Shown here: piece by piece, positions 2,874-44,350 of the stretch
Layout: each line of letters begins with the position of its first letter
How positions within the stretch are numbered: position 1 is the first letter of the stretch
Source: Alphaproteobacteria bacterium
Lineage (GTDB): Bacteria; Pseudomonadota; Alphaproteobacteria; GM7ARS4; G965262615
Assembly: GCA_965262615.1 (NCBI GenBank)
Contig: OZ253545.1
Span: 756,776 to 820,775, forward strand
DNA length: 64,000 bases
Reading direction: 5' to 3'
Notes under the pieces: model-generated
The model's database searches: none
The model's input: only the letters and a program-made list of their open reading frames with translations
Told to the model about the DNA's origin: nothing
Program-made: the position numbers and the translations under genes

Positions 2874-4724
2874 ATGAAATATGCTATCCGTAGTCTTCTG
2901 AGTCTGGTTGCTTTGTCTTTCGTTGTGACATCTGCTCATGCGAATGACTGGTTGTTGGACAATCAGAAAGACCCTAAACAGTGGGTTATGCCGACAGGCA
3001 ATTATGACGCGCATCGCTTTTCTCGGTTGACACAAATCAACCGCGGGAATGTGCATCGTCTGAAAATGGCCTGGAACTTCTCAACGGGCGTTCTTCGTGG
3101 TCACGAAGGCGGACCTTTGGTGGTGGACAATATGATGTATATTCATACGCCCATCCCCAATAAAGTGTTCGCTTTGGACCTTGATGAAGATGCGCGCATC
3201 GTTTGGGAGTACAATCCCGTCAAGGGCGGCAGATACCCCAGTGGAGACACTGAAGAGCGCGTGATTTCGGTCATGTGCTGTGATAATGTCAACAGAGGTG
3301 TTGCGTACACCGAAGGCGAAGGTGCTGGTGACGGTACTGTCTTCTTGCACGCTGCCGACACCACTTTGATTGCTTTGGATGCTGAAGATGGCGAAGTCAA
3401 ATGGCAAGTCACCAACATGGATCCAGGAACAGGCAATCGTGGTGTGTCCGCCTCTACCGGCACAGGTGTCCCGTTCATCATCAAAGATAAAGTTGGCATT
3501 GGTTGCTCTGGCGCTGAATTCGGCGTCCGTTGTAGCTGGACCATGTATCGCATGTCCGATGGATCGCGCGTGTGGCGCGCCTATTCCATGGGTCCCGATG
3601 ATGATATCCTGGTGGATCCCAATCGCACCACTCACATGCTGCAACCCGTCGGTCGTGACTCCAGCGTTAACAGCTGGAAAGGCGATCAGTGGGAAATCGG
3701 CGGTGGCTCCATCTGGGGCTGGTATGCATGGGATCCTCGCGTGGATCTGCTCTACTACGGCACAGGTAACCCCAGCACATGGAATCCTGTTGTCCGTCCA
3801 GGAGACAACCGTTGGTCTATGACCATCATGGCGCGCAATCCTGACACAGGTGTCGCCAAGTGGTTCTATCAAATGACCCCCCATGATGAGTGGGATTATG
3901 ACGGTGTCAATGAGATGATTCTCGCCGACATTCCTGTCAAAGGGCGCAAGCGTCATGCCTTGGTTCACTTCGATCGCAATGGCTTCGCTTACACCATGGA
4001 CAGAGTCACAGGTGAACTGCTCATCGCGGAAAAATATGATCCTGCCGTCAACTGGGCGACCCATGTCGATATGAAGACTGGACGTCCTCAAGTGGTGGAT
4101 GCATATTCCACGCATCACAATGGTGAAGATGTCAATACAACTGACATCTGTCCCGCCGCGCTCGGTACGAAAGACCAGCAACCCGCCAGCTTCTCGCCGA
4201 AGTCTGGGTTGTTCTATGTGCCGACCAATCATGTCTGCATGGACTATGAACCGGTGGGTAATCCTGTCTACACGGCAGGGAATGCCTATGTGAATGCAGT
4301 CTTGAGCATGTATCCGGCACCAGGTGGTACTCACTTGGGTCGATTCGTCGCTTGGGATGCGGGAACTGGACAAGAAGTATGGGGCATTGACGAACCCTTC
4401 TCAGTGTGGTCTGGCGCTTTGTCAACCGCTGGAGATGTGGTCTTCTACGGAACGCTTGAGGGTTACTTCAAAGCGGTCGATGCTCGTAACGGCGATGAAC
4501 TCTATAGGTTCAAAACCGCGTCCGGTATCATCGGCAATGTGCATACATGGATGCATGACGACAAGCAATACATCGGCATCTTTTCGGGTGTTGGTGGCTG
4601 GGCTGGAATCGGCCTTGCCGCTGGACTCACCGATCCGAGTGCTGGTCTCGGTGCTGTCGGGGCTTACCAAAGTCTGCACAACTACACCAAACTTGGTGGT
4701 GTCCTGAATGTCTTCTCTCTCTAA
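2874..4724 (+). CDS. xoxF: PQQ-dependent methanol dehydrogenase, lanthanide-dependent XoxF type
   Basis: Signal peptide ([13 protein letters not shown]), a vicinal Cys-Cys ([10 protein letters not shown]), and full-length resemblance to MxaF/XoxF ([44 protein letters not shown]). [10 protein letters not shown] carries the extra Asp (DYDG) where Ca-dependent MxaF has DYAG. AGGAGG at 2861-2866 lies 7 nt before ATG 2874. Confidence 0.93.
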
Positions 4725-4744
4725 GAGGGGATTATGGGAAGAGT

Positions 4745-4772
4745 GGGGCTCGAAGTTAACGCTTCGAGCCCC
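4745..4772 (+). other. intercistronic stem-loop between xoxF and xoxG (11-bp perfect stem GGGGCTCGAAG/CTTCGAGCCCC, 6-nt loop)
   Basis: Inverted repeat read directly: left arm 4745-4755, right arm 4762-4772. No T-run follows, so it is not a canonical intrinsic terminator. It could be an mRNA processing or stability element. Confidence 0.55.
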
Positions 4773-4796
4773 CACTCACATCAAAGGAGATCAATT

Positions 4797-5495
4797 ATGA
4801 TGAAAAATTTTATGAGAACAGCAACCCGTTTGAGTGCCCAATTGGGTGTATTGTGTGCCTTCCTCTTTGTGAATCCTTTGCTGGCGCAAGAACAGAAGGT
4901 GCTTGAACCGGAATTTGATGCCAACGGCAACCCCATTCCTGTGACCATTGACATTGAGTATGATAGCAAAAATCGTCCCGTTGGTCTTCCCGCTGTGGAG
5001 CCACAATACAATGATGAGGAGGGAGATCCCGCCTATTACTATGTCATCAATGGAAATCCTCCTGGAGAGCCTCCCGATTATGAAGGTATGGAACTCAAGG
5101 ATGTGCTTTATTTTGTTGATCCCAAAGCCAAGACTGTGGAAGAGCGAGAACCCATCTCCGGATGGATGGATTTTGCCACCTACGACGGCTGGCGGCGTTA
5201 TCATGAGTCGTGTCATGTGTGTCATGGTCCCGATGGCATGGGGAGCACTTATGCGCCCGCCATCACTGAGAGCATGAAGACGATGAACTGGGAGTATTTT
5301 GCCAATGTGGTCATCAATGGTCGTGGACGCGCTGAGGGGGCGGCGGCGGGAAATGTCATGCCGGCATTTGGCGAGGATGGCAATGTCGCGCCCTATGTGG
5401 AGGATCTCTATCGCTATTTGAAAATGCGCGCCGATGGCAAGGTGCGGCGTGGTGTACGCATGCCGCGGCTGCCCAAATACAAAGAGCCCAGCTAA
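4797..5495 (+). CDS. xoxG: periplasmic c-type cytochrome, XoxG-like (cytochrome cL family)
   Basis: Signal peptide, a single CxxCH haem motif (SCHVCHG), and a position immediately downstream of xoxF. AAGGAGA precedes ATG 4797. Confidence 0.8.
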   Translation: MMKNFMRTATRLSAQLGVLCAFLFVNPLLAQEQKVLEPEFDANGNPIPVTIDIEYDSKNRPVGLPAVEPQYNDEEGDPAYYYVINGNPPGEPPDYEGMELKDVLYFVDPKAKTVEEREPISGWMDFATYDGWRRYHESCHVCHGPDGMGSTYAPAITESMKTMNWEYFANVVINGRGRAEGAAAGNVMPAFGEDGNVAPYVEDLYRYLKMRADGKVRRGVRMPRLPKYKEPS

Positions 5496-5516
5496 GCCAG
5501 ACTTCATCAAGGTGAG

Positions 5517-6338
5517 ATGATGCGTTGTCTTGGATTCCTTGTTTGCTTCGTGGGGATGCTGTGGAGCACGCAGATTCATGCGCGTGCCACCTCTATTCAG
5601 GCGGTGGATGCCGAGACTTTGCGCGTCTGTGCTGACCCCGCCAACATGCCCTTTTCCAACAAGGAGCAAGAAGGCTTTGAAAATGACATCGCTCGCTTGC
5701 TGGCACAATGGCTGAAGAAAGACCTCTCCTATGATTGGTTTCCTCAAGCCATTGGCTATGTGCGCAACACTCTGAACAAGAAACGCTGCGATGTTTTTAT
5801 CGGCATGCCCACGGGCAGTGATTTGGTTCTCAACACCAATCCTTATTATCGCTGGGGGTATAGCATGGTGTATCGCAGTGATGCGGGCATTGAGGTGGAT
5901 CGCCCTGACCATCCGCAGCTGGCGGAATTGCGGATTGGCGCAGTGGCGGGAACGCCGCCCAACTATGTGCTGCACCTGCACAACTTGATGGGACGGGTGC
6001 GTCCTTACAAATTGATTTTTGACACCCGTCTGCGCTCCATTGCTCATGAGATGGTTTTGGATTTGAAAAATGGCTTTGTGGATATTTTATTCATGGCGGA
6101 TATTTTGGCTGCCCATTATGCTCGTGAGGAGGGACTGGACATCACCATGATTCCCATCACCAGCACGGAGCAAAATGATTATGGCAAGGTGGAATTTTTG
6201 ATGGCGATGGGGGTGCGTCACGGCGAGAATGATTGGAAGCGGTTGCTCAACAGTTTTTTGCGTGAGGAAAAAGATGCCATTGGTGCCATTTTGCAAAAGC
6301 ACCAAATTCCCGTGCGTCCCGTTCGCCCAGCGCGCTAA
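5517..6338 (+). CDS. xoxJ: quinoprotein-dehydrogenase-associated periplasmic solute-binding protein (XoxJ/MxaJ family)
   Basis: Signal peptide, the motif LRVCADPANMPFSN typical of MoxJ-like type 3 binding proteins, and gene order xoxF-G-J. Confidence 0.8.
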   Translation: MMRCLGFLVCFVGMLWSTQIHARATSIQAVDAETLRVCADPANMPFSNKEQEGFENDIARLLAQWLKKDLSYDWFPQAIGYVRNTLNKKRCDVFIGMPTGSDLVLNTNPYYRWGYSMVYRSDAGIEVDRPDHPQLAELRIGAVAGTPPNYVLHLHNLMGRVRPYKLIFDTRLRSIAHEMVLDLKNGFVDILFMADILAAHYAREEGLDITMIPITSTEQNDYGKVEFLMAMGVRHGENDWKRLLNSFLREEKDAIGAILQKHQIPVRPVRPAR

Positions 6339-10891: not shown

Positions 10892-12115
10892 ATGACCGCA
10901 TTCATGCCCACCATAGCGACACGGCTTCATTCTATCAAGCCGTCACCCACTCTGCAAATGACCAAAGAGGTGAATCGGCTGCGCCGCGAGGGCGTTGATG
11001 TCATTGGCTTGGGGGCGGGTGAGCCAGATTTTGACACGCCAGACTTCATCAAAGCCGCCGCCATCAAAGCCATTGAGGAGGGCAAGACCAAATACACAGC
11101 GGTGGACGGCATTAGCGATTTGCGGGAAGCAATCGCGGCGCGCTTTAAGAGACGATATCGTGTAAATTGTGTTGTTGACAATGTCCTTGTGGGCTGTGGG
11201 GCGAAGCATATTTTGTTCAATGCCTTGCTGGCATCATTGAACGAGGGGGACGAGGTGATTATTCCCGCACCTTACTGGGTGTCTTATCCCGACATGGTGC
11301 GGCTGGCGGGGGGCAAGCCCGTGATTGTGCCGTGCGGCGCGGCGCAAGGCTTCAAACTCACACCTGATGCCTTGCGCGCCGCTCTCACACCTCGCAGCAA
11401 GTGGCTGATTGTGAACTCTCCCAGCAATCCAACGGGAGCGATTTACAGTCATGAGGAATTGGCATCCTTGCTGGCGGTGGTGCGGCAGCATGACTCTGTG
11501 TGCGTGTTGAGCGATGAGATCTATGAGGGAATTATTTATGATGACGCGCCCTTTGCCTCGTGTACGGCGGTGGCGCGAGATGTCTCAGAAGAGCTCATTG
11601 AGCGGGTGTTGGTGGTGAATGGGGTGTCCAAAGCCTATGCCATGACGGGGTGGCGCATTGGCTACGGCGTTGGCTCGGCGAAGCTCATCAAGGGCATGGC
11701 GAAAATTCAATCCCAGAGCACTTCCAATGCGTGCAGTGTGAGTCAATATGCGTCATTGGCGGCATTGACGGGGGATGATGGCTTTATGGCGGCGCGCACC
11801 GCGGCATTCTCGGCTCGGCGCGATAGGGTGGTGACCGCACTCAATGACATGGCGGGAATTGAGTGTGATGTGCCGCGCGGGGCGTTTTATGTCTTTCCTT
11901 CCTGTGCGGGGGTGCTGGGCAAGAAGGATGGTGGCGATGTCATTGCCTCGTCTTTGGATTTTGCCTCTTACCTGCTGCGAGCAGCGCGAGTGGCGGTGGT
12001 GGCGGGGGAGGCGTTTGGCATGGAGGGACACATTCGCATCTCCTACGCCACCGATGATGATTCCCTTAAAACCGCCATGAAACGAATAGCAGACGCAGTC
12101 GCCCAGCTACGATAG
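10892..12115 (+). CDS. pyridoxal-phosphate-dependent (aspartate) aminotransferase, class I
   Basis: GAGEPDFDTP, NSPSNPTG, and the PLP-Lys context GVSKAYAMTGWRIGY. Confidence 0.88.
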   Translation: MTAFMPTIATRLHSIKPSPTLQMTKEVNRLRREGVDVIGLGAGEPDFDTPDFIKAAAIKAIEEGKTKYTAVDGISDLREAIAARFKRRYRVNCVVDNVLVGCGAKHILFNALLASLNEGDEVIIPAPYWVSYPDMVRLAGGKPVIVPCGAAQGFKLTPDALRAALTPRSKWLIVNSPSNPTGAIYSHEELASLLAVVRQHDSVCVLSDEIYEGIIYDDAPFASCTAVARDVSEELIERVLVVNGVSKAYAMTGWRIGYGVGSAKLIKGMAKIQSQSTSNACSVSQYASLAALTGDDGFMAARTAAFSARRDRVVTALNDMAGIECDVPRGAFYVFPSCAGVLGKKDGGDVIASSLDFASYLLRAARVAVVAGEAFGMEGHIRISYATDDDSLKTAMKRIADAVAQLR

Positions 12116-12140
12116 CCCATGCAAAACCGCGTTTTTTGTT

Positions 12141-12785
12141 TTATTTGATATATCCCTGGGCAATTAAAATAGTGACAGTAATGCCCCCAAACCACATCAA
12201 GATGTTTACTTTGCCTGTGAGAACTTGCATCTTTGTGTCCAAAGATTGAATTGATTTGATGACATCTGACATAGTCCAGACCTCTGAAGAAATGAGAGAC
12301 TCCACATCGGCTCCACCAAGCTCTGTTTTGCCTTGAAGGGGACCCGAATAGCGTTTTATGCTGGGTTTTGCCAATCTGTGTATTTCCAAAGTGAGAAAGT
12401 CTTCTTTGAAGGTAAAGGTGACGCGGCGGGAAGTTGGGTTGACAATCCTAGCAAACAATCTGCCGTGAAAACCTGGATCAATTTGTGCACCTGTTGTGGC
12501 ATAAATTCCTTTTCTGGCAAGACCAGAGGTCAGATCAAAACGAGCGGCGTGGCTCTGATTGATTGCGATTATTTCATGAGTGCCGATAATGGCAGAGTCA
12601 CCAGCCTCAACAATGATAAAACCTTTTTCAGAAATATCTTCTATTTTCTTTCCTTGAATGGTTGCTCCCTGTTTGCCCACGCGCAAATCGTAGGATGCGG
12701 GCTGCAATTGCCTGTCTTCATAATCAGAAATCTCAATCCCGCCATTATCAAGAGCTTCTTTAATCCCTTTGTCTGACAAAATCAT
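12141..12785 (-). CDS. dCTP-deaminase/dUTPase-fold protein with a C-terminal transmembrane anchor (paralog 1)
   Basis: MILSDKGI, QPASYDLRVG, TSGLARKGI and IDPGFHG resemble Dcd. The C-terminal hydrophobic stretch is ILMWFGGITVTILIAQGYI. The region is A+T-rich. Confidence 0.6.
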   Translation of the reverse strand: MILSDKGIKEALDNGGIEISDYEDRQLQPASYDLRVGKQGATIQGKKIEDISEKGFIIVEAGDSAIIGTHEIIAINQSHAARFDLTSGLARKGIYATTGAQIDPGFHGRLFARIVNPTSRRVTFTFKEDFLTLEIHRLAKPSIKRYSGPLQGKTELGGADVESLISSEVWTMSDVIKSIQSLDTKMQVLTGKVNILMWFGGITVTILIAQGYIK

Positions 12786-12820
12786 TGCGGCACCCTCTTT
12801 TGTTGATGCAATGTTCTTTT

Positions 12821-12914
12821 AATATACTATTTTTTGCTTGGTCTTACAAGAATGAACGGAAATTACTTTGAAGACGGTTTGTCCCGTTGTTCAAAAAGAG
12901 GTTCGCTGACCGCA
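12821..12914 (-). promoter_or_regulatory. conserved upstream element of paralog 1: sigma70-like promoter (TTGTAA, 17-nt spacer, TATATT) plus an upstream imperfect inverted repeat
   Basis: On the minus strand, -35 is TTGTAA (12844-12849) and -10 is TATATT (12821-12826). The same element recurs 825 bp away. Confidence 0.45.
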
Positions 12915-12965
12915 TTTTTTAATCTTTTTTCAGCTGCGATAACTCATATAAAACTTCGTTTTGTT

Positions 12966-13610
12966 TTATCTGAAAGATGCCATAATTCCCATCAAAGCGA
13001 GCATGACAGGAAAAAGCCACATCAACATTTTTACTTGAATTGCGAGCTCTCGCACCTCTCTGCTGGAAGATTGAACCGATTTGATGATGTCTGGCACAGT
13101 CCATACCTCTGAAGAAAAGAAATGCTCCACATCACCTCCATCAAACTCCGTTTTGCCTTGATAGGGACCCGAATAAGGCTTTGTGCTGGGTTCTAACAAT
13201 TGGTGTATTTCCAAAGTGAGAAAGTCCTGTTTGAAGGTGAAGGTGACGGGATGAGGCATCAAATTGGTAATGCCAACAAACAATCTGCCGTGATACCCCG
13301 GGTCCACTTGTGTGCCTGTTGTGGCATAAATTCCTCTTCTGGCATGACCAGAGGTCAGACCAAAACGAGCCGCGTGACTCGCATCCATTCTGATGACCTC
13401 ATGAGTGCTGAGAAGGGCAGAGTCACCAGCCTCAACAACGATAAAACCTCGTTCAGAAATATCTTCTATTTTCTTCCCCTTAAGAGTTGCCACCTGCCTG
13501 CCAACGCGCAAATCGTAGGACGCCGGCTGCAACTGCTTGTCCTCATAACCAGAGATCTCAATCCCTTTATCCCTGAGAGCTTGTTTGATTCCGTTGTCCG
13601 ATAAAACCAT
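12966..13610 (-). CDS. dCTP-deaminase/dUTPase-fold protein with a C-terminal transmembrane anchor (paralog 2)
   Basis: Same length (214 aa) and motifs as paralog 1 (QPASYDLRVG, TSGHARRGI, VDPGYHG). The C-terminal hydrophobic stretch is LMWLFPVMLALMGIMASF. Confidence 0.6.
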   Translation of the reverse strand: MVLSDNGIKQALRDKGIEISGYEDKQLQPASYDLRVGRQVATLKGKKIEDISERGFIVVEAGDSALLSTHEVIRMDASHAARFGLTSGHARRGIYATTGTQVDPGYHGRLFVGITNLMPHPVTFTFKQDFLTLEIHQLLEPSTKPYSGPYQGKTEFDGGDVEHFFSSEVWTVPDIIKSVQSSSREVRELAIQVKMLMWLFPVMLALMGIMASFR

Positions 13611-13645
13611 TGCACGATCCTTTTTTCTTGAAACGACACCCCGCC

Positions 13646-13739
13646 ACTATACTATTTTTTGCTTGGTCTTACAAGAATGAACGGCAATTACTTTGAAGAC
13701 GGTTTGTCTTGCCGTTCAAAAAGAGGTTCGCTGACCGCA
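13646..13739 (-). promoter_or_regulatory. conserved upstream element of paralog 2: promoter (TTGTAA, 17-nt spacer, TATAGT) plus a 9-bp perfect inverted repeat GAACGGCAA/TTGCCGTTC
   Basis: Copy of 12821-12914. The inverted-repeat arms, read on the plus strand within 13678-13717, flank a 22-nt spacer. The element overlaps the 3' end of the 94-aa ORF. Confidence 0.45.
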
Positions 13740-14000
13740 AAATAGTTTTAGTTCATACAAAATTTTGTCAATGAGCAAATCACGCACCGCCAGATAGGGT
13801 GTGTAATAATCCACCGCAACAACGCGCTCCATATCAATATCGTCACAATCCCATTTTTGATCCACAACGATGGCAAACATGGATGACGCACTGATGTCTT
13901 CATCCAAAAAATCACTGACGCTGTCGCCATCAATGGTCTTGACATGCTGGCGCACCAAATTCAGCAAAGCGGTAAAATCTTGAGGGTTCAGCTCGCACAT
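13716..14000 (-). CDS. hypothetical small acidic protein (94 aa)
   Basis: The ATG lies 3 nt after the stop of the upstream 244-aa gene (TGA-gcc-ATG). The protein is strongly acidic (DGDSVSDFLDEDISA, DCDDIDME). I recognise no domain. Confidence 0.5.
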   Translation of the reverse strand: MCELNPQDFTALLNLVRQHVKTIDGDSVSDFLDEDISASSMFAIVVDQKWDCDDIDMERVVAVDYYTPYLAVRDLLIDKILYELKLFCGQRTSF

Positions 14001-14003
14001 GGC

Positions 14004-14738
14004 TCAATAGGTCTTGCGTTCTTCTTCCAGTTTTTTGGCATCGTAATGGGCGATGAAATTCTCGTAAGGAATAAAATCGTAGCGCGCGTAATGACTGGCA
14101 TAAGGCTCGCGTCCCATGACCTTGTCATATTTCGTCTTAAATTGGGGTGGTGCTAAAATATAGAATTTCGTTCTAAAGGGTTCTAATTGATAGAGGCGAG
14201 AAATGGCATTTTCCATCGTTCCAATGCTATCCACCACTTCATAGGCTCTTTGCGGGAATGGTTTATCTTTTTTGTCAAAAAAAATGACATCAATGTTTCT
14301 GGCTTCGGCAAGAATATCACCATAGGTAAATGGTGGGAGTTCCGACAAAGTGACAAGGTTTTTGAGAGGCACACCATTGAATTGAGCCGCTTTATCGGCG
14401 GTGAATGTGTGGTATTCGTCCAAGTTACCCAGCTCAATACACACGCCTTCCATGTGAGCGTGCATACGCTCGTCATCTTTTTTGATGGTGGCGAGGGGTG
14501 TTTCTTCGTATTGTCTGTCCTTGAGGGCAAAGATGCCGATGCCCAGCTTTTTGAACGCGGTGTCGGGGTTTTTCATATCTCTGTAAAGCACACCTCTGAG
14601 ACCCGCCTTCCAGTCATCTGACCGCTTGGCTTCAGGATAATAGCGTTCAATGGTGTCGTAGATAACTTCCCATGAGGCAACGCCATCATGGTCTTGTAGC
14701 AATCGGCGCATGGCTTCTATTTTTGTTGCGTCACTCAT
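14004..14738 (-). CDS. hypothetical protein: N-terminal winged-helix (Mrr-N/HARE-like) and C-terminal putative PD-(D/E)xK-like nuclease domain
   Basis: The N-terminus WEVIYDTIERYYP...WKAGLRGVLYRDMK...FKKLGIGIFAL resembles wHTH modules of restriction proteins. The C-terminal pattern is HAHMEGVCIELG ... NIDVIFFDKK ... RAYEVVDS. The functional call is tentative. Confidence 0.45.
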   Translation of the reverse strand: MSDATKIEAMRRLLQDHDGVASWEVIYDTIERYYPEAKRSDDWKAGLRGVLYRDMKNPDTAFKKLGIGIFALKDRQYEETPLATIKKDDERMHAHMEGVCIELGNLDEYHTFTADKAAQFNGVPLKNLVTLSELPPFTYGDILAEARNIDVIFFDKKDKPFPQRAYEVVDSIGTMENAISRLYQLEPFRTKFYILAPPQFKTKYDKVMGREPYASHYARYDFIPYENFIAHYDAKKLEEERKTY

Positions 14739-14777
14739 GAAATTATGACTTTAATAAAAAATGTTCGGTAAGGCGAA

Positions 14778-15683
14778 TTATTTTTTTATAATCAATTTTT
14801 TGTGGTGTTTTTTGGCAATGACTGTGGCAAGGAGAATCAATCCTGCCGCGGTGGCAATGGAGCCGCCGCCATTGAAGGCTCGTCCTTCCGTCAGCACCAC
14901 CAGCGGCACATACAACGCGACAACATAGCCCAATAAAACCGATGTGACCGCGATGAGCATCGCCATAATTAATTGCGTGATGGCGTCGCCTCCCAGCACC
15001 GCCGCGGTGGTGACTGGAATGGCAAACAGTGCAATGGTCACCACCGCTCCTGTTGCCTGAAAACACGCCGCCGCCGCGATTGCCGTGAGCCCTGCCAACA
15101 CATACCGCCAGCGCGCTGTGGACATACCAATGGACTCGGCATAAATGGGGTCAAAAATCACCACCATCAATTCCTTGCGTAGCGGCAGCACAATCGCCGC
15201 CACCAGCACCAACACCAACGCCAACATCCAAATCTCATAGGGCACAAACCACACATCAGACCACGCCACGCCATTCAACAAAGACGGCATCATGATGCCC
15301 TCCAAATTGCCATACAACGCATGCTCAACATCAATATGAAAATGAGACAGCTGCAATCGCTCCAGAAAAAAAACGCCCAAGGCGAAAAAACTGGTGAGCG
15401 TCATGCCCATCGCCCCTTGGGTGTTCAAAACGGTGTGTTTCTCCAGCCACTCGCTCAAGAGCAACGAGAGCATGGCAGCCAGCGTGGCACACAGCAAAAT
15501 CATGGACGGTGACAGCGTGTGACTCACCACCGCCGCCGCCACAATGCCCGGCAACACCGCATGGCTCACCGCATTGGCATACAACAATCCCTGACGCAAA
15601 AACAAAAAATGCCCCATCAAACAGGCAATCATCGCGGTGAGCAACGCCGCGAGCAAGGCGGGAATGTCCAACGCCAGACTCAT
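14778..15683 (-). CDS. metal (Mn/Zn/Fe) ABC transporter permease
   Basis: Polytopic membrane protein of the ABC-3 (MntD/ZnuB/SitD) type. ATG 15683 overlaps the upstream permease stop (ATGA). The 432-aa tracked ORF is an out-of-context N-terminal extension. Confidence 0.85.
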   Translation of the reverse strand: MSLALDIPALLAALLTAMIACLMGHFLFLRQGLLYANAVSHAVLPGIVAAAVVSHTLSPSMILLCATLAAMLSLLLSEWLEKHTVLNTQGAMGMTLTSFFALGVFFLERLQLSHFHIDVEHALYGNLEGIMMPSLLNGVAWSDVWFVPYEIWMLALVLVLVAAIVLPLRKELMVVIFDPIYAESIGMSTARWRYVLAGLTAIAAAACFQATGAVVTIALFAIPVTTAAVLGGDAITQLIMAMLIAVTSVLLGYVVALYVPLVVLTEGRAFNGGGSIATAAGLILLATVIAKKHHKKLIIKK

Positions 15684-17274: not shown

Positions 17275-18348
17275 TCAGGGTTGAGTCGGCATTTCGGGCG
17301 TTGCGGCGATGGTTGTTTGTTGTGGTTTTTGCGGTGCGGCGTTGTTTTGCTTCTGTGCCAGTTGAGCGTTTTGCGGCTGAATGGCTTTGAGGATGGTTCT
17401 CACATTGTGCGCGATCATTCCCAGATAAGTTCCTGCGCGCGTTCCTGGCGCACCCATAGAATCGGCATAGAGGATGCCGCCCATCGTGATGTCGTGTCCT
17501 CTGGCTTTGCTGCCCTCAATGAGCGCCTCAACATAGCGCGGATTGACCGAGCTTTCGGCAAACAGTGCGGGGATACTGCGATTGACGGTGAGTTCCACGA
17601 GGCGATTGATGTCATGGAGTCCTGCTTCACTTTCGGTGCTCATTCCTTGAATCCCGCGCACATCAAAGTTGTATCGTCTGCCGAAATAGAAGAACGCGTC
17701 ATGAGCGGTGAGCAGCACTCGTTCCTGGTCTGACAGATTTTGCAAGGAGCGGGCGATGGTTTCGTGCAGTCGGGCGGTGGCTTTTTGAAAGACGCGCAAC
17801 CGCGCCAGATAAAAGGCGGCATTGTCCAGATCATTGTCGGCGATGCGATTGACCGCCTCACCGATGGCATGACTCCAGATGACGGGGTCCATCCACAGGT
17901 GCGGGTCAATGTGTCCCTCGTCACTGAGATGCAGGCTGCGTTCGGGCACGAGATCCAAGATGGTGACGACTTGTTTGCCGTGCTGTTGCAACCGTCCGAT
18001 GGGTCTTTTGAGGGGCGCTTCCAGCGAGGGCCCCGTCCAGATAATCATGTCGGCGGCGGCGAGCAGAGCCATATCCGAACGGGTGGGACGATACAAATGA
18101 GGGTCAACGCCCTCCCGCATCAGCGCAACCACCTCAATGCGTTTGCCGCCGATGCGTCCGATGGGGTCGCTGAGCATGGTGGTGGTGGTGACAACCAGTT
18201 GCGTGTACGGGTCGCTCTGCAGCCGTTGCAGACGCTCATCGCCACCGTAGCCCAGCAGCAACAACGCACACACCCCACACACCACCGCGTAGGCAACCAC
18301 AAAGGGACGCTGATTCATTGTCATCAGTTGGCGCATCAATTGGCTCAC
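17275..18348 (-). CDS. metal ABC transporter substrate-binding protein (TroA/MntA/ZnuA family) with a Gln/Pro-rich C-terminal tail
   Basis: TroA-like motifs (DPHLYRPT, DPHLWMDP, AHDAFFYFGRRY) and an N-terminal membrane/signal segment. Confidence 0.85.
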   Translation of the reverse strand: MSQLMRQLMTMNQRPFVVAYAVVCGVCALLLLGYGGDERLQRLQSDPYTQLVVTTTTMLSDPIGRIGGKRIEVVALMREGVDPHLYRPTRSDMALLAAADMIIWTGPSLEAPLKRPIGRLQQHGKQVVTILDLVPERSLHLSDEGHIDPHLWMDPVIWSHAIGEAVNRIADNDLDNAAFYLARLRVFQKATARLHETIARSLQNLSDQERVLLTAHDAFFYFGRRYNFDVRGIQGMSTESEAGLHDINRLVELTVNRSIPALFAESSVNPRYVEALIEGSKARGHDITMGGILYADSMGAPGTRAGTYLGMIAHNVRTILKAIQPQNAQLAQKQNNAAPQKPQQTTIAATPEMPTQP

Positions 18349-18367
18349 AGACTCCTTTATGGGCTAG

Positions 18368-18390
18368 TTGCGAATGATTGTCAATAGCAA
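18368..18390. promoter_or_regulatory. candidate Fur/Mur-type operator upstream of the metal ABC operon
   Basis: Imperfect palindrome TTGCGAATGATTGTCAATAGCAA, with 16 of 23 positions self-complementary by my count. It lies 20-42 nt upstream of the first possible start codon. Motif resemblance only. Confidence 0.3.
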
Positions 18391-18486
18391 GTAGAGGTAT
18401 TATGACACATAATCCACACAATTACAAAGTGTAATCTTAATTTTTTGTTGGAATTGTCAATCGTGAGGCAGGGGCGCAAGGAGGGC

Positions 18487-18891
18487 TTATTCTTTGTCAA
18501 ATGGTGGTTCTGTGTTTGCAAAATCAATCCTTTCTATGGATGGTATCCGAAATGTAAATGCTGTGCGTCCTTGAAATGAGCTCACGGCAAAATCTCCTTC
18601 GCCAATAATATCCATTCCTATGAGAATGTCGATCTCACCAGATAAACTTTCTGATTCACTCACGAGATGATTTTCAAACATCACACCATTGGGAAGAACG
18701 ATATTCACACGATATGCCGCAACTCTTTGAGGTTCTACCGTGCTGGGGGTTCTGACAAGAGCGACACCCACTTGCCGCAAGGCACATTTTTTTGCCACAT
18801 GCTTTGTGACTGATGTGTGTGTTGCTCCCGTATCCCAGATGGCTTTGAACTGAATTTTTTGTGCATGGGCATGGGCGTGTGCCACACCCAC
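18487..18891 (-). CDS. retropepsin-like (clan AA) aspartic protease
   Basis: Catalytic motif WDTGATHTSV, followed by ILIGMDII (a flap/GxD-like region). The apparent start is GTG, followed by a His-Ala repeat (HAHAHA). Confidence 0.65.
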   Translation of the reverse strand: MGVAHAHAHAQKIQFKAIWDTGATHTSVTKHVAKKCALRQVGVALVRTPSTVEPQRVAAYRVNIVLPNGVMFENHLVSESESLSGEIDILIGMDIIGEGDFAVSSFQGRTAFTFRIPSIERIDFANTEPPFDKE

Positions 18892-18942
18892 ACATCACTT
18901 GAGAGCTCACTCAAGCGAGTGTTTGCATCAATGGTAAAAGCT

Positions 18943-19215
18943 TTAATGGGCGGGTTTCTTTGCGCCATCAATAAAGGAAAACCGAGTTTGAAATGTTTGA
19001 TGGATGCTACGCGGATCCTCCGAACACTCCTGCACCAAGAATGTCCCCAGCTCATGCTTTTTGCTGGTGACCTTGATGGCTTCCTTCACATCATCATAAG
19101 CACCAATGACTTGTTGGTCTTTAATCACAACAAACTTGCCGTTGTATTTTTTGACCAACGCCTCGTGATTCTCCAAAAAATAATCAAAATCCCGATCCAA
19201 CTTCCTGTCCAACAT
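18943..19215 (-). CDS. small protein, DUF5678-like (putative partner of the aspartic protease)
   Basis: YNGKFVVIKDQQVIGAYDDVKEAIKV resembles the short DUF5678-type domain. It sits directly upstream of the protease on the same strand. Confidence 0.45.
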   Translation of the reverse strand: MLDRKLDRDFDYFLENHEALVKKYNGKFVVIKDQQVIGAYDDVKEAIKVTSKKHELGTFLVQECSEDPRSIHQTFQTRFSFIDGAKKPAH

Positions 19216-19400
19216 GATTAATTCCCTTCGTCAGTGTGTGTTGTTTGTTGCAGAGAGCGTCACCATTCCTCAAGATAAGATGAAAAATGAACCAGCACAA
19301 GAGAAAGGCGGGGGAATTCTTTGAAGATGCCATGGACTTTTTAATTGATTGCAGTTACAATCAAAATCTTATTTCGTTGGAAACATGAAGGAGGCTGGAT

Positions 19401-20759
19401 ATGAAATGCAAAATTAAGGATTGGGAAATAGGCGAGTTTGACAGTCGCAAACATAAGATAAATTTTGATCCCCCATATCAAAGAACTGAGAAGGCTTGGG
19501 ATGAAAAAATGCAACAGTTGTTGATTGACTCCATCATCAATGGCTATGACATCCCTAAGATTTATCTCCACAAATTAGCGGATGGTGGGTACGATGTTAT
19601 TGATGGCAAGCAACGCCTAACGGCTATATTTCGCTTTCTTAACAATGAATTTGGACTTGCCATTGCTAAGGGGAAAAATAATGGCTTTGAACTGACTGCG
19701 CCGTCTTTAAATGATTTTGAAGCCCGAGACCCTGAGCAAGGGAATATTTTTGATGATTTATCAACAGCATGGCGCGATAAAATCATGGATTTTTCTGTTA
19801 CAGTAACCATTGTTAGTGATGCTGATGAACTGGAAGTTAAAGGCTTTTTTGCTCGCTTGAACAAAGGGAAACAAGTTAATAATACAGAGCTCAGGCGTTC
19901 AATTGGCGGGACTCTTATGAATTCAATTAAAAGGCTGGCAAAGGATGATTTCTTCACAAAGAAAACGAAATTGTCCAATGACAGATTGATGATGGAAGAT
20001 ATTGCCACTAAATTTATTCTGATTGAAGATCTTGCCAATTTTTCTCATCCAGAACACAAACCGTATCAGGATTTGAAAAGGGAAGATCTTGATAAAGTTG
20101 TTAGACGCTACAAACAAGAAGAGGATAGCCAAAAAGTCAAAACATTGGAAAAAATTAAAACATTGGAAAAAATGGCAAAATCCAATCTTCAAGTAATGAA
20201 AGATGTATTTGAAGATAATTCGCCCCTATTGGCACAAAGCTCTATTCAGCTTTATTATCTCTTTATAAGAAAAATAAAGCTTGAATATGGTCACGAAAAT
20301 TTGAAAGGCTTGCTCAAGTCCTTTTTAGAGGATTTTGAGGTTGAGCGTCTGCTTGTAAGAGCCAAAACGAAAAGTGATGATGTTAAACCCGTAAATTTGA
20401 ATGAGGAAGAATTGTTTCGGGAACATAGAATACGGCGATTTATTTTAGACCAATCTAAATCCAACGATAAGAAAAGCTTGGAGCGACGAGTAGATACTCT
20501 GACAGGCTTTTTCATTGAAAAACATCCTGATGTTTTTGTTGTTGTTCGCAAAGATGAAAAGAGGCTTTTTACAAAGGATGAAAGGTTTATCATTTTTAAG
20601 CTGAGTGGTGGAAAATGTGCCAATTGTGGAAAAATATTTAAGGATTTTTCCGACTTTGATGCTGACCATGTCATTTCATGGGCAAAGGGGGGTCCCACCA
20701 CCATCGCCAATGCCCAAGCTTTGTGCAAAAGTTGCAACAGAAGCAAAGGCGCGCGCTAA
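19401..20759 (+). CDS. DUF262 (ParB/Srx-fold, DGQQR-type) + C-terminal HNH endonuclease; GmrSD-like type IV restriction candidate
   Basis: N-terminus FDPPYQR...LIDSIINGYDIPKIY...VIDGKQRLTAI, C-terminus DADHVISWAKGGPTTIANAQALCKSCNRSKG. GGAGG precedes the ATG. The sequence is strongly A+T-rich and carries an 18-bp in-frame tandem duplication at 20139-20174 (KTLEKI/KTLEKM). Confidence 0.8.
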   Translation: MKCKIKDWEIGEFDSRKHKINFDPPYQRTEKAWDEKMQQLLIDSIINGYDIPKIYLHKLADGGYDVIDGKQRLTAIFRFLNNEFGLAIAKGKNNGFELTAPSLNDFEARDPEQGNIFDDLSTAWRDKIMDFSVTVTIVSDADELEVKGFFARLNKGKQVNNTELRRSIGGTLMNSIKRLAKDDFFTKKTKLSNDRLMMEDIATKFILIEDLANFSHPEHKPYQDLKREDLDKVVRRYKQEEDSQKVKTLEKIKTLEKMAKSNLQVMKDVFEDNSPLLAQSSIQLYYLFIRKIKLEYGHENLKGLLKSFLEDFEVERLLVRAKTKSDDVKPVNLNEEELFREHRIRRFILDQSKSNDKKSLERRVDTLTGFFIEKHPDVFVVVRKDEKRLFTKDERFIIFKLSGGKCANCGKIFKDFSDFDADHVISWAKGGPTTIANAQALCKSCNRSKGAR

Positions 20760-40203: not shown

Positions 40204-40545
40204 ATGAAAGAACCAGCTGTGACATTGACTCATAATGCCATCAAACGCATCACCCATGTGGCTCAGCGTGAGGGTCGTGGTGCGGTGGTGTTGCGGATTA
40301 GTATTGAGGGGGGGGGCTGTCAGGGATTCTCCTACCATTTTGCCTTTGAGGATGCTCCCGCTCAAGACGATTGCGTTTTTGATTACGGCGATGCCCGCCT
40401 CGTCATTGATGAAGTCTCGCTGCCACTGATGCAAGGCGCGGTGGTGGATTTCATTGAAGATCTCATGGGAGCGCGCTTTCATATTGAAAATCCTCAAGCG
40501 TCCTCCTCGTGCGGTTGCGGCACTTCCTTTAGCATTGAGGAATGA
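40204..40545 (+). CDS. erpA: iron-sulfur cluster insertion protein (ErpA/IscA family)
   Basis: GGGCQGFSY and the C-terminal SCGCGTSF motif. Confidence 0.9.
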   Translation: MKEPAVTLTHNAIKRITHVAQREGRGAVVLRISIEGGGCQGFSYHFAFEDAPAQDDCVFDYGDARLVIDEVSLPLMQGAVVDFIEDLMGARFHIENPQASSSCGCGTSFSIEE

Positions 40546-41342
40546 CACAAACCTTCACCATTGCCAGTTGGAATGTCAATTCGGTGCGGATGCGTGCGCC
40601 ATTGGTGGAACGCTGGCTGCGAGACCATGCGGTGGATGTCTTGTTGTTGCAGGAGCTCAAAGCTTTGGAGGAGCAGTGTCCTGTGTCGTTGTTTGAAGAG
40701 GCGGGATACAACAGTGCCATTTTTGGACAAAAAAGCTGGAACGGTGTGGCAATTTTGGCGCGTCAGCCTCTGGAAGATGTGCGCTTGGGATTGCATGATG
40801 ACGGACGCACCCAAGAAGCTCGTTATATTGAAGCGGTGACCCCCTTTGGTGACTCCATGATTCGCGTGGCATCCGTCTATGTGCCCAATGGCAATCCGAT
40901 GGATGGCCCTTCCTTTGCCAAAAAGCGCACCTTCATGGCGGATTTGACTCATCGGTGGCAGCAGCTGGCATCCCTTGAGGAGGTGTGCGTGCTGGCAGGA
41001 GATTACAACATTCTCAATGATGAACGCGACTGCTGGAATGACTTGGAAAAATGGCGCAATGACGCATTGGGAGCAGTGGAAGCACAGCAATGGTATCGTC
41101 AGTTATTGTATGGCGGTTTGACCGATGCCTTGCGCCACTGTCATGACGAGGGAGGCTTGTATAGTTTTTGGAACTACAAGGGAGGCTCGGTGCAGAGCGA
41201 CAGAGGCTTATTGATTGATCGCTTTTTGCTGTCGCCTCAGGCGACCGAGCATCTCAAGGATGTCACCATTGATAAAGACCCTCGCCATGCGGAAAAAGCC
41301 TCTGACCACACGGTGCTGGTGTGTCATTTAGATATGCCTTGA
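40542..41342 (+). CDS. xthA: exodeoxyribonuclease III
   Basis: IASWNVNSVR, LLLQELK, the catalytic DHxP-type C-terminus (SDHTVLV), and a length of 266 aa. Confidence 0.9.
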   Translation: MTQTFTIASWNVNSVRMRAPLVERWLRDHAVDVLLLQELKALEEQCPVSLFEEAGYNSAIFGQKSWNGVAILARQPLEDVRLGLHDDGRTQEARYIEAVTPFGDSMIRVASVYVPNGNPMDGPSFAKKRTFMADLTHRWQQLASLEEVCVLAGDYNILNDERDCWNDLEKWRNDALGAVEAQQWYRQLLYGGLTDALRHCHDEGGLYSFWNYKGGSVQSDRGLLIDRFLLSPQATEHLKDVTIDKDPRHAEKASDHTVLVCHLDMP

Positions 41343-41349
41343 GGATGCT

Positions 41350-42498
41350 TTATATCAGTTTCAGTTTCAATTTCAAATATTCCATGCCGCGATCGCCTTT
41401 GATGCGATTACAATTGCCACAGAGCAATTGAAGGTTTTCAATGTGATCCGTGCCGCCTTTTTTTCGTGCGATGATATGATCCACTTCGAACTGGCGCAAT
41501 TCAAAATGCTCATTGCACCCGGCACAATTGCCAGCTTGTGCGCCATACAGTGTCTTGGCATGGCTGCGAGGCGGCGGCAGTTTTCCCATATCGGTGCGCT
41601 GCGGAATGTCGGTGCGATGAGCTCCTTTATAAAAGATCCCCACTTCCTTTTTCATGCGTTGTTTCACGAGCTCGGCGGCTTTGGGTGATATATCTATGCC
41701 GACCCATTGTCGCTCTTCCAGTTCGGCGGCAATGCAGGCGGTGGCACAGCCACAGAACGGATCAAGCACAAGATCGCCATTATTGCTACTGGCAGTGATG
41801 ATGCGTTTCAGCAAGGCAAGAGGCTTTTGTGTCGGATATCCCGTGCGTTCTTTAGCTTGAGTATTGATAGATGGTATATCCTCCCACCAATCACGAGGCA
41901 GACGACCACTCTCATCATCTTTCCAGCCACTTTTCTCGCCAAAGACCAGAATCTTTTTTTGATTGAAGACAAAATTGGCACTTTTACAATATCTAAAAAT
42001 GATATCATGTTTTCGTTTGAAGTCTCCTTTGGTATTGCTCCCACCCCATTTATAGCACCAAACAATCTCATTCCTAAAATTTTTACGACCGAATATGGCA
42101 TCCATGAGCAATTTGAGGTAGTGGGACATGGTGGGGTCACAGTGCAGATAAATGCTTCCTGTTGGTTTCAATACCCGATGCATCTCCAACAAGCGCGCCG
42201 CCATGTATACGAGATAGGATTTGTCATTGGATGTCATTGTTGCCAGCAATACACGATAGAGGGCTGGATGTTTCGCCTCAATGAGGTTAATCCACTCAAC
42301 ATCAATATCACTGAGAGCCCATGTATCTTTAAATTCCGCGCCCGCCGCCTCCGACCCTATGGGAGCGGCATAGTTGGCATTTGAGTTGAATGGTGGGTCT
42401 AGGTAAATGAGGTCAACGCATTCAGAGTTCATGCCTCGCAGGATGAACAGATTATCGGATGTCCATATGGTTTGGCTGGCGAAATTTGGCTCGTTCAT
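41350..42498 (-). CDS. beta-class N6-adenine/N4-cytosine DNA methyltransferase fused to a C-terminal HNH endonuclease domain
   Basis: Motif [11 protein letters not shown] precedes motif [12 protein letters not shown], the permuted order of the N6_N4_Mtase family. The C-terminus is CAGCNEHF...[31 protein letters not shown]. The ATG overlaps the ilvD stop (ATGA). The sequence is A+T-rich. Confidence 0.8.
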
Positions 42499-44330: not shown

Positions 44331-44350
44331 GACTAATGATTGTTGCAATC

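Follow-up and report, generated by a model that had tools for sequence, protein, structure and literature searches.

To our knowledge, every characterised member of the Dcd/dUTPase fold, a fold that is among the best studied in nucleotide metabolism, is soluble. Two other kinds of described system bear on the locus reported here. The established anti-phage deoxycytidine triphosphate (dCTP) deaminases (Tal 2022, Hsueh 2022) are presented in PMC12184417 as Zn-dependent enzymes fused to other activities. In Neisseria, the type II restriction enzyme R.NmeDI, 351 aa long, has been characterised, and its gene overlaps that of its C5-methyltransferase (PMC2095814). The locus, islet A, lies in a stretch of 64,000 nucleotides (hereafter the window; contig OZ253545.1, positions 756,776 to 820,775) from an alphaproteobacterium of the GM7ARS4 lineage. 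It contains genes for a 244-aa nuclease-like protein, a 94-aa acidic protein and two 214-aa Dcd-like paralogs, DCD-B and DCD-A, and a first-pass annotation, made from the letters of the sequence, had taken the four together as a candidate novel defence module. Islet A is best read as a composite in which two accessory elements, independent of each other, occupy the same variable slot, and not as a four-gene module. The best overall explanation, in which this composite islet carries a membrane-tethered deoxynucleotide hydrolase with a role in conflict, is given a probability of about 0.45.

Both 214-aa proteins were matched by the Pfam family DCD (PF22769), for which the cutoff is 27 bits, at 66.7 and 68.7 bits, and their scores against the NCBIfam equivalog for dCTP deaminase (TIGR02274), 82.9 bits and, for DCD-B, 88.1 bits, were both under the cutoff of 92.8. 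A match of the Dcd-like protein to PHROG 1663, named 'dCTP deaminase', was also obtained (E 2.6e-25). The AlphaFold model of the DCD-B monomer, built on 33 family sequences, reached a predicted local distance difference test (pLDDT) value of 86.8, and the top three Foldseek matches of this model were the P. furiosus P45 dUTPase (9ln0/9ln3) and the complex of the T. pacificus dUTPase with deoxyuridine monophosphate (8y1w), with template modelling (TM) scores of 0.90–0.93, root-mean-square deviations of 1.2–1.6 Å and 30–33% identity. These archaeal dUTPases ranked ahead of the bifunctional DCD-DUT enzymes and of E. coli Dcd, and members of all three groups (dUTPases, DCD-DUT and Dcd enzymes) superimposed on the model at E values of 1e-15 to 1e-10. 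The Dcd/dUTPase fold, which had been proposed from short motifs, is thus supported both by a Pfam score above the cutoff and by a confident model that superimposes on solved members.

The active-site residues were compared in a joint alignment of the 33 family members with characterised superfamily enzymes, in which the column of the deaminase Glu was set by the E. coli Dcd sequence (identical to PDB 1xs1) and by the 2v9x 'E138D' entry, as the Glu of 'IVLEFYN'. At this column DCD-B has Gly, DCD-A has Arg and 29 of the 33 family members have Gly; among the comparators, the B. halodurans DCD-DUT carries Glu and both archaeal dUTPases carry Met. The absence of the catalytic Glu from both paralogs, suspected at first reading, is therefore real. 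Since the Glu is absent and the scores fall below the equivalog cutoff, the Dcd-like proteins are not dCTP deaminases; they are members of the Dcd/dUTPase superfamily, nearest to the Glu-less archaeal dUTPase branch. The residues shared across the superfamily were found to be invariant in the family, namely S87 and R91 (phosphate binding), D103-P-G, G108, N116 and Y146 of the lid, with S87, R91, D103 and Y146 kept in 33/33 family members, and the conserved C-terminal nucleotide lid motif reads P-Y-x-G-P-Y-Q-x-K. The further suggestion that the paralogs might be non-catalytic was not sustained: because the solved structures closest to the model belong to active dUTPases in which the Glu is naturally missing, and because the shared superfamily residues are invariant, the missing Glu would mark the dUTPase branch rather than a dead enzyme.

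The label of a classical dUTPase would nevertheless be misplaced for this family, since residues of the characterised pocket are replaced and the activity is a putative one. The Trp that precedes D-P-G in characterised dUTPases is Q101, and their motif-IV Gln is Thr or Ser at position 132, in each case in 33/33 members. The family alignment holds 23 invariant positions, and Q101, R109, E134 and H136 are invariant in this family alone; together with the loss of the motif-IV Gln, these four residues suggest a base preference unlike that of classical dUTPases. With the pocket remodelled in this way, the substrate cannot be read from the sequence. By analogy with characterised superfamily enzymes, the putative activity is most likely that of a membrane-tethered, trimeric deoxynucleotide pyrophosphatase with a non-classical base preference. 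The protein would form a homotrimer, as its solved relatives do, held at the cytoplasmic face of the membrane by its tail anchor; a pyrimidine deoxynucleoside triphosphate would be bound through S87, R91 and the lid and hydrolysed to monophosphate and pyrophosphate with the use of D103 and without deamination. In a conflict-related role, the protein would deplete or sanitise nucleotides at the membrane during infection.

The single C-terminal hydrophobic helix that had been noted in both paralogs was found to be a trait of the whole family. In 33/33 aligned members a 17-residue hydrophobic window (median Kyte-Doolittle value of 2.69) ends within about 5 residues of the C-terminus, and no comparably hydrophobic window was detected by the same scale in the first 150 residues of these members. 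The helix opens on a Trp that is nearly invariant across the family (W198 in DCD-B). Since there is no signal peptide and the hydrophobic helix stands at the terminus, the head should be cytoplasmic and the topology tail-anchored. In the DCD-B model the lid runs straight into a helical stalk that reaches to the Trp. Among 118 family members, the distance from lid to Trp is 52 residues in 77 and 59 in 32, with distances of 45, 66, 73 and 87 in one or two members each, and an exact multiple of 7 separates 37 of the 39 stalk length variants from the common length. Relatives with much longer stalks display overt heptad repeats and still carry the membrane helix at the end, and tandem two-core relatives likewise terminate in membrane helices. 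From these regularities it follows that the stalk is a coiled coil whose register is kept between the nucleotide lid and the membrane helix.

The same architecture could be that of a nucleotide-gated membrane effector of abortive infection, in which the trimer would mainly sense a nucleotide, for example deoxyuridine triphosphate (dUTP) or a modified deoxynucleoside triphosphate made by a phage. Closure of the lid would then be transmitted by the register-locked coiled coil to three membrane helices that perturb the membrane, and hydrolysis would only reset the switch. Insertions and deletions that preserve the heptad register are a pattern known from signalling helices rather than from passive tethers, and the direct continuation of the lid motif into the stalk, the register kept in 37/39 stalk variants and the base pocket remodelled with family-specific invariant residues all fit such a sensor. 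The same can be said of soluble relatives in which other C-terminal domains take the place of the membrane helix, or which have gained an XRE helix-turn-helix, a modularity like that of sensor-effectors, and of the gene travelling alone, which means that any sensor and effector must share one polypeptide. Nevertheless, one helix per subunit, or three per trimer, makes a minimal pore, all the hydrolytic residues are conserved and would be superfluous for a pure sensor, and multiples of seven are expected in any coiled-coil tether. A gated effector is thus regarded as unlikely, and the same holds for the proposal that the family is a single-gene immune or exclusion device, whose head would sense or destroy a specific, possibly phage-modified, deoxynucleotide and whose coiled coil would drive three membrane helices.

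Several other architectures (P0203, P0209, P0212, P0222, P0232, P0273, P0186, P0219, P0235 and P0240) share the Glu-less core. A conserved soluble C-terminal domain of ~90 aa replaces the membrane helix in some relatives, an N-terminal XRE helix-turn-helix is fused to the core in others (Pfam HTH_3, E 7.5e-10), further relatives start with a zinc-ribbon-like segment, and in still others two cores stand in tandem ahead of two membrane helices. A likeness of the ~90-aa domain to HicB antitoxins was confirmed neither by Pfam nor by a profile search of PDB sequences.

The distribution of the family was evaluated with a pattern scan of one genome per species, which yielded 131 relatives, and with an exhaustive profile search of 1.84 billion representative proteins, which yielded 153 clusters at E ≤1e-30. 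The 131 relatives span Planctomycetota, Acidobacteriota, Nitrospirota, Verrucomicrobiota, Actinomycetota, Chloroflexota and one archaeon, as well as Alpha- and Gammaproteobacteria, many of them sponge symbionts; nearly all come from metagenome-assembled genomes, and some genomes carry two copies at separate loci. The GC content of the Dcd-like gene was below that of the surrounding locus in 50 of 56 loci, with a median difference of −6.5 points (Wilcoxon p = 2e-9). When open reading frames (ORFs) were called in ~75 loci from many phyla and clustered all against all, no conserved neighbour gene was found, the largest neighbour clusters being an insertion sequence (IS) transposase in 6/75 loci and an AbiEi-like protein in 3/75; in this set the 244-aa and 94-aa proteins turned up in L002 alone. 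The annotated neighbours include IS elements, HigBA and other toxin-antitoxin pairs, AbiEi, restriction-modification genes and strings of small prophage-like ORFs, and the gene is often wedged against housekeeping operons. Relatives were also found on 10 of 2.9 million viral contigs, and those checked were real phages with terminase and tail fibre genes, in which the Dcd-like gene stood once before an endolysin, once after a nucleotide kinase (L096) and once among unknowns. Because there is no recurring partner, the GC content is lower than that of the locus, the neighbours include mobile elements and the gene occurs in phages, the Dcd-like gene is a self-contained, horizontally mobile accessory gene. 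The homologs are therefore not core genes of nucleotide metabolism, and neither the lack of a Dcd fold nor an intact Glu without a membrane helix, the two other outcomes that had been named as speaking against the annotation, was encountered.

In one of the viral contigs (L097, 7284-9302) the tail-anchored Dcd-like gene is flanked by a nuclease gene on one side and by the gene of an endolysin (PHROG 315, E 4.6e-44) on the other. Holins often occupy the slot next to the endolysin; the holin-like position in L097 is a single case and may be a coincidence.

Many phages carry dUTPases against uracil in their DNA, and the Dcd-like protein could likewise serve mobile elements in ordinary nucleotide hygiene, as a dUTPase (or dCTPase) that keeps uracil out of their DNA and has no role in immunity, its membrane tether being incidental, perhaps near sites of replication or packaging. 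The nearest structures are indeed bona fide dUTPases, the protein matches PHROG 1663, the gene is present in real phages, once right after the nucleotide kinase gene of L096, and related soluble cores are encoded by archaeal viruses. Its rarity in viral data tells against this: among 50,697 curated phage genomes no full-length relative with the membrane helix was found, only soluble cores in archaeal viruses, and no Dcd-like relative was found in 72,556 plasmids. Most copies, those of the window included, are chromosomal and without nearby phage genes, and the uracil-pocket residues of characterised dUTPases are not conserved. A hygiene role would also leave unexplained the tail anchor, the phase-locked stalk and a tandem duplicate with relaxed or diversifying evolution (the ratio of nonsynonymous to synonymous substitution rates, dN/dS, being 0.74). 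This explanation, too, is doubtful, and a membrane-tethered hydrolase with a conflict-related role is preferred to it.

The composite reading of the islet starts from its slot, which is bordered by an aminotransferase gene (10892-12115, plus strand) on one side and by a metal ABC transporter operon on the other. An ORF check recovered the four genes, all on the minus strand, where they had been placed (Table 1), and the GC content was 0.38-0.47 over positions 12000-14800 vs 0.55-0.59 in the flanks, in agreement with the A+T-richer DNA first described. No Rfam family was matched within the islet. The supposition that this is a variable location was borne out by relatives in which the same slot carries different cargo. 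In L001, which is of the same lineage, it holds an Eco57I-type methyltransferase, a 171-aa ORF and one Dcd-like gene; in L100, L101 and L102 it holds the endonuclease-like gene, the small ORF and one Dcd-like gene; and in L002 and the window it holds the endonuclease-like gene, the small ORF and two Dcd-like genes. The arrangement in L001 means that the slot exchanges restriction-type cassettes while the Dcd-like gene stays. Since the cargo varies, remnants of a methyltransferase survive, and homologues of the 244-aa gene pair with methyltransferases and not with Dcd-like genes, the islet is a composite. In L001 the methyltransferase (423 aa) and the 171-aa ORF, which is uncharacterised, replace the 244-aa/94-aa pair at 4065-5851.

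The opposite view, that the nuclease-like and acidic proteins act with the two membrane-anchored Dcd-like proteins as one integrated defence module, was the one originally put forward. The order of endonuclease-like gene, small ORF and Dcd-like gene on the same strand is kept in the window, L002, L100, L101 and L102, all three are under purifying selection, and the persistence of an endonuclease-like gene without an adjacent methyltransferase calls for explanation. These five genomes are closely related, however, and the linkage may be simple inheritance; outside these close relatives the Dcd-like gene was not found together with the 244-aa and 94-aa genes, L001 keeps the Dcd-like gene with a different methyltransferase cassette, and no co-occurrence was found in the ~75 other Dcd-like loci or around homologues of the 244-aa gene elsewhere. 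Additionally, the methyltransferase remnants point to an origin by decay of a restriction-modification cassette, and each Dcd-like copy is preceded by its own promoter-like site. An integrated module is thus very improbable, and the two accessory elements of the composite islet are treated separately below.

The first element (14738-13716) would be what is left of a type II restriction-modification cassette whose methyltransferase once lay downstream and is now deleted. The nuclease-like character and winged helix proposed for the 244-aa protein were supported by a confident model (pLDDT 89.5), in which a helix, a strand, two helices and two strands make up a winged helix at the N-terminus with matches among the globular domains of histone H1, by the precomputed Pfam family NmeDI_C (PF27126), found on this protein and on 28 of 30 homologues, and by invariant acidic residues of the family that include D150 and E167 of the acidic pattern originally pointed out. 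A Foldseek search of the model against the PDB gave nothing below E 0.03, with weak matches to BsaWI, BstEII and EcoO109I. The homologue in L086 adjoins an intact 268-aa N6/N4 methyltransferase with overlapping stop and start codons, that in Helicobacter pylori adjoins split methyltransferase fragments, and that in Treponema adjoins a D12 methyltransferase fragment and an AlwI-type enzyme; in Helicobacter, Treponema and another contig the homologues have no Dcd-like gene in the neighbourhood.

No methyltransferase gene was found within islet A or in the slot of L100-L102. L002 keeps a 100-aa C-terminal methyltransferase fragment, homologous to residues 167-251 of the L086 enzyme, which a 306-bp deletion has removed from the window. 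The last codons of the methyltransferase survive upstream of both Dcd-like copies (12866-12937 and 13691-13747), and a tblastn search with the L002 fragment gave 92% over 24 aa at 12866-12937. Because of the NmeDI_C family, the homologues beside methyltransferases and these last codons, the 244-aa gene, with its 94-aa partner, appears to be the remainder of a decayed restriction-modification cassette.

The 244-aa and 94-aa ORFs meet at 'TGA gcc ATG' in the sequence, as described. The 94-aa product is very acidic, as had been observed, with an isoelectric point of 4.15 and 18 D+E vs 8 K+R. Only 5 homologues were found, each at least 88% identical, 82-94 aa long and from the same lineage; no family was matched in Pfam, NCBIfam, PHROGs or PADLOC, and the C-terminus of the ORF varies with the deletion junction. 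The possibility that it is a methyltransferase fragment was ruled out, as it has no similarity to intact or fragmentary methyltransferases. The 244-aa gene is under purifying selection in five related genomes, all without an adjacent methyltransferase, and is always translationally coupled to the acidic ORF. Possibilities for the pair are a nuclease with its inhibitor or a nuclease other than a classical restriction enzyme; it is conceivable that a former restriction enzyme, now the orphan nuclease, has become with its acidic partner a toxin-inhibitor pair.

Elsewhere in the window, a 382-aa N6/N4 DNA methyltransferase with a C-terminal HNH nuclease motif is encoded on the minus strand at 41350-42498, inserted with an exonuclease-III-like gene (40542-41342) on one side and ilvD (42495-44348) on the other. 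It shares 29% identity with the intact L086 enzyme that partners the 244-aa family and could be a candidate protector of the genome from the orphan nuclease.

The second element (13739-12141) would be a tandem duplicate of the self-contained mobile gene, with a promoter-like site for each copy. The duplication of the 214-aa genes was confirmed as a tandem repeat with a period of 825 bp and 64% protein identity, and the two copies are confined to the window and its near-identical relative L002, a single copy being present in L001, L100, L101 and L102. Of the 58 columns conserved in the family, 14 are altered in DCD-A, with changes clustered in the motif-III strand (G113R, T115V, L117P and P119S) and the lid (P145R and Y150L), and its dN/dS value against the L002 orthologue is the 0.74 given above. 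DCD-B showed values of 0.17-0.18, the 244-aa gene 0.07-0.14 and the 94-aa ORF 0.21-0.26 (at a synonymous rate, dS, of ~0.3), with a comparison value of 0.14-0.15 for the neighbouring ABC permease gene; against more divergent relatives (dS 0.25-0.47) the values were 0.18 for DCD-B and 0.12-0.14 for the 244-aa gene. Since these values are similar to that of the permease, the 244-aa gene, the 94-aa ORF and DCD-B are real, maintained coding genes under purifying selection. DCD-A and DCD-B could also form mixed trimers with changed specificity.

It might be held that the islet consists of functionless, decaying remnants, namely pseudogenised restriction leftovers and a degenerate enzyme, as the methyltransferase is lost, DCD-A shows relaxed constraint and changes at conserved positions, and the C-terminus of the 94-aa ORF shifts with the deletion junction. 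This is hardly credible: the reading frames are all intact, the dN/dS values of DCD-B, the small ORF and the 244-aa gene, which run from 0.12 to 0.26 (dS 0.25-0.47), equal that of the neighbouring housekeeping gene, and the Dcd-like family is conserved across phyla with its 23 invariant positions. Maintained accessory genes in a composite islet are the better account.

A 92-nt segment before each Dcd-like copy (repeat D3) was found to be 95% identical between the copies vs 80-83% in the coding parts, which could be due to gene conversion or to a conserved regulatory element. Both copies are equipped with a promoter-like site and a ribosome-binding site of their own, the former being TTGTAA-17-TATATT for DCD-A (12849..12821) and TTGTAA-17-TATAGT for DCD-B (13674..13646) in a promoter scan. 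A hairpin, AAGAC-AAACC-GTCTT, lies upstream of each copy and at these two sites only within the window; as it occurs at just the two copies, an uptake sequence or a dispersed repeat was ruled out.

Table 1. Features of islet A, with positions counted from the first letter of the window.
Feature	Position	Strand	Evidence
DCD-A, 214-aa tail-anchored Dcd/dUTPase-fold protein, divergent paralog	12141..12785	-	Pfam DCD, E 3.3e-18
DCD-A C-terminal hydrophobic (membrane) helix, residues ~193-214	12144..12209	-	Maximum Kyte-Doolittle 1.99 over 17 residues, from residue 193
Upstream repeat copy 1 (before DCD-A): promoter-like site, hairpin, last codons of methyltransferase	12823..12914	-	Repeat comparison, promoter scan, tblastn
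DCD-B, 214-aa tail-anchored Dcd/dUTPase-fold protein, conserved paralog	12966..13610	-	Pfam DCD, E 7.7e-19
DCD-B C-terminal membrane helix, residues ~195-214	12969..13028	-	Kyte-Doolittle 2.17; W198 nearly invariant in family
DCD-B stalk, residues ~158-194, helical, heptad-phased coiled coil from lid to membrane helix	13029..13139	-	Model helices 158-168 and 172-213
Upstream repeat copy 2 (before DCD-B): promoter-like site, hairpin, 3' remnant of methyltransferase; junction of 306-bp deletion relative to L002	13648..13739	-	
94-aa acidic ORF, lineage-restricted, translationally coupled to 244-aa gene	13716..14000	-	
244-aa winged-helix and NmeDI_C-type nuclease-like protein, orphan type II restriction-endonuclease-like gene	14004..14738	-	

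The biological function of the Dcd-like gene is most likely a conflict-related one, to judge from its patchy, A+T-rich and mobile-borne distribution, the fast-evolving tandem copy and its place in a slot of restriction genes. None of the four proteins was matched in PADLOC-DB 2.0.0 at E values up to 1, in keeping with the claim that the islet is absent from known defence catalogues, and with PHROGs and NCBIfam the hits of the four proteins were confined to generic dCTP deaminases or dUTPases. Defence-type genes were found by Pfam and PADLOC scans to be common within 10 kb of Dcd-like genes, and the flanking and distal sets of genes were alike in this respect, both containing mobile genes as well, so that no statistically supported association with defence islands can be claimed. 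Of the candidate defence module, the part that stands is a plausible conflict or defence role for the Dcd-like gene alone, and the four-gene unit is unsupported, its 244-aa and 94-aa members being found with the Dcd-like gene in one lineage only and the ~75 other loci having no conserved partner.

Some results weigh against the preferred explanation of a composite islet with a membrane-tethered deoxynucleotide hydrolase in a conflict role. With the motif-IV Gln and the Trp before D-P-G replaced, hydrolysis could be impaired or the substrate could be an unexpected one. The PADLOC families were similar in number for the flanking (42) and distal (44) genes of the same loci, none of the defence genes is a repeated partner, and housekeeping genes are frequent among the neighbours. 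Finally, three genes of the islet co-occur in five genomes of the lineage, and a local functional link between them is possible.

Past the metal ABC operon, a second low-GC stretch (0.39-0.47) was found at positions 18200-20000 of the window. It is opened by a 134-aa retropepsin-like ORF (18487-18891), which adjoins the operon in L001 and L002 too.

Literature searches in a limited library returned no description of a membrane-anchored Dcd/dUTPase-fold protein and no experimental study of the family. What is new is a mobile branch of ~150 clusters, present almost only in uncultured bacteria, that combines a hydrolytic core kept intact with a remodelled base pocket and with a coiled coil of preserved phase that ends in a membrane anchor. 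If it is true that the family hydrolyses or senses a deoxynucleotide at the membrane, it would bring a new fold and layout to nucleotide-based conflict systems, and this would account for its having escaped screens in E. coli and Bacillus. A misreading is also corrected, in that loss of the Glu marks the dUTPase branch and the known anti-phage 'dCTP deaminases' have another fold. A second, small puzzle is posed by the orphan nuclease, which selection maintains in the absence of a methylase. The interest of the Dcd-like family is moderate as it stands, and would be high if a stalk-coupled membrane output or an immune function were confirmed.

Among known systems, the archaeal dUTPases (P45, 9ln0/9ln3; T. 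pacificus, 8y1w) have the same fold, give the best structural match and likewise lack the deaminase Glu, and they have in common with the Dcd-like family the S-x-x-x-R, D-P-G, G, N and lid P-Y-x-G-x-Y-Q motifs. They are soluble proteins of ~155 aa, whereas the Dcd-like family adds the coiled-coil stalk and the membrane helix; the family further differs in having Q101 for Trp and Thr/Ser for the motif-IV Gln, and R109, E134 and H136 are invariant only in it. The Dcd and DCD-DUT enzymes (E. coli 1xs1, M. tuberculosis 2qxx, B. halodurans 4xjc and M. jannaschii 1ogh) share the superfamily and the Pfam DCD model, but the Dcd-like family lacks their catalytic Glu, which is E138 in the E. coli enzyme and E145 in that of M. 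jannaschii, and, unlike housekeeping Dcd, the Dcd-like genes are accessory and mobile and their proteins membrane-anchored. The anti-phage dCTP deaminases and AvcD, to which the first-pass annotation had appealed as a precedent, have a different fold and a different chemistry, and no Zn-dependent cytidine-deaminase-type Pfam domain was found in the islet proteins; the likeness would be a functional analogy, in which a lowered deoxynucleotide pool hinders phage replication, and not homology. Effectors of the cyclic oligonucleotide-based antiphage signalling system (CBASS) and of the pyrimidine cyclase system for antiphage resistance (Pycsar) include nucleotide-binding domains fused to membrane helices, and the Dcd-like proteins resemble them in joining a presumably cytoplasmic nucleotide-binding domain to a membrane helix in the product of an accessory gene; they differ in fold and in having just one helix, placed at the very C-terminal end, and neither a cyclase nor another gene that makes a signal accompanies them. 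Similarly, the 244-aa family resembles R.NmeDI and type II systems in its NmeDI_C domain, its methyltransferase-adjacent homologues and its acidic residues compatible with a nuclease core, and differs from R.NmeDI in its length of 244 aa with an N-terminal winged helix, in the lack of an adjacent methyltransferase in five genomes and in the coupled acidic ORF.

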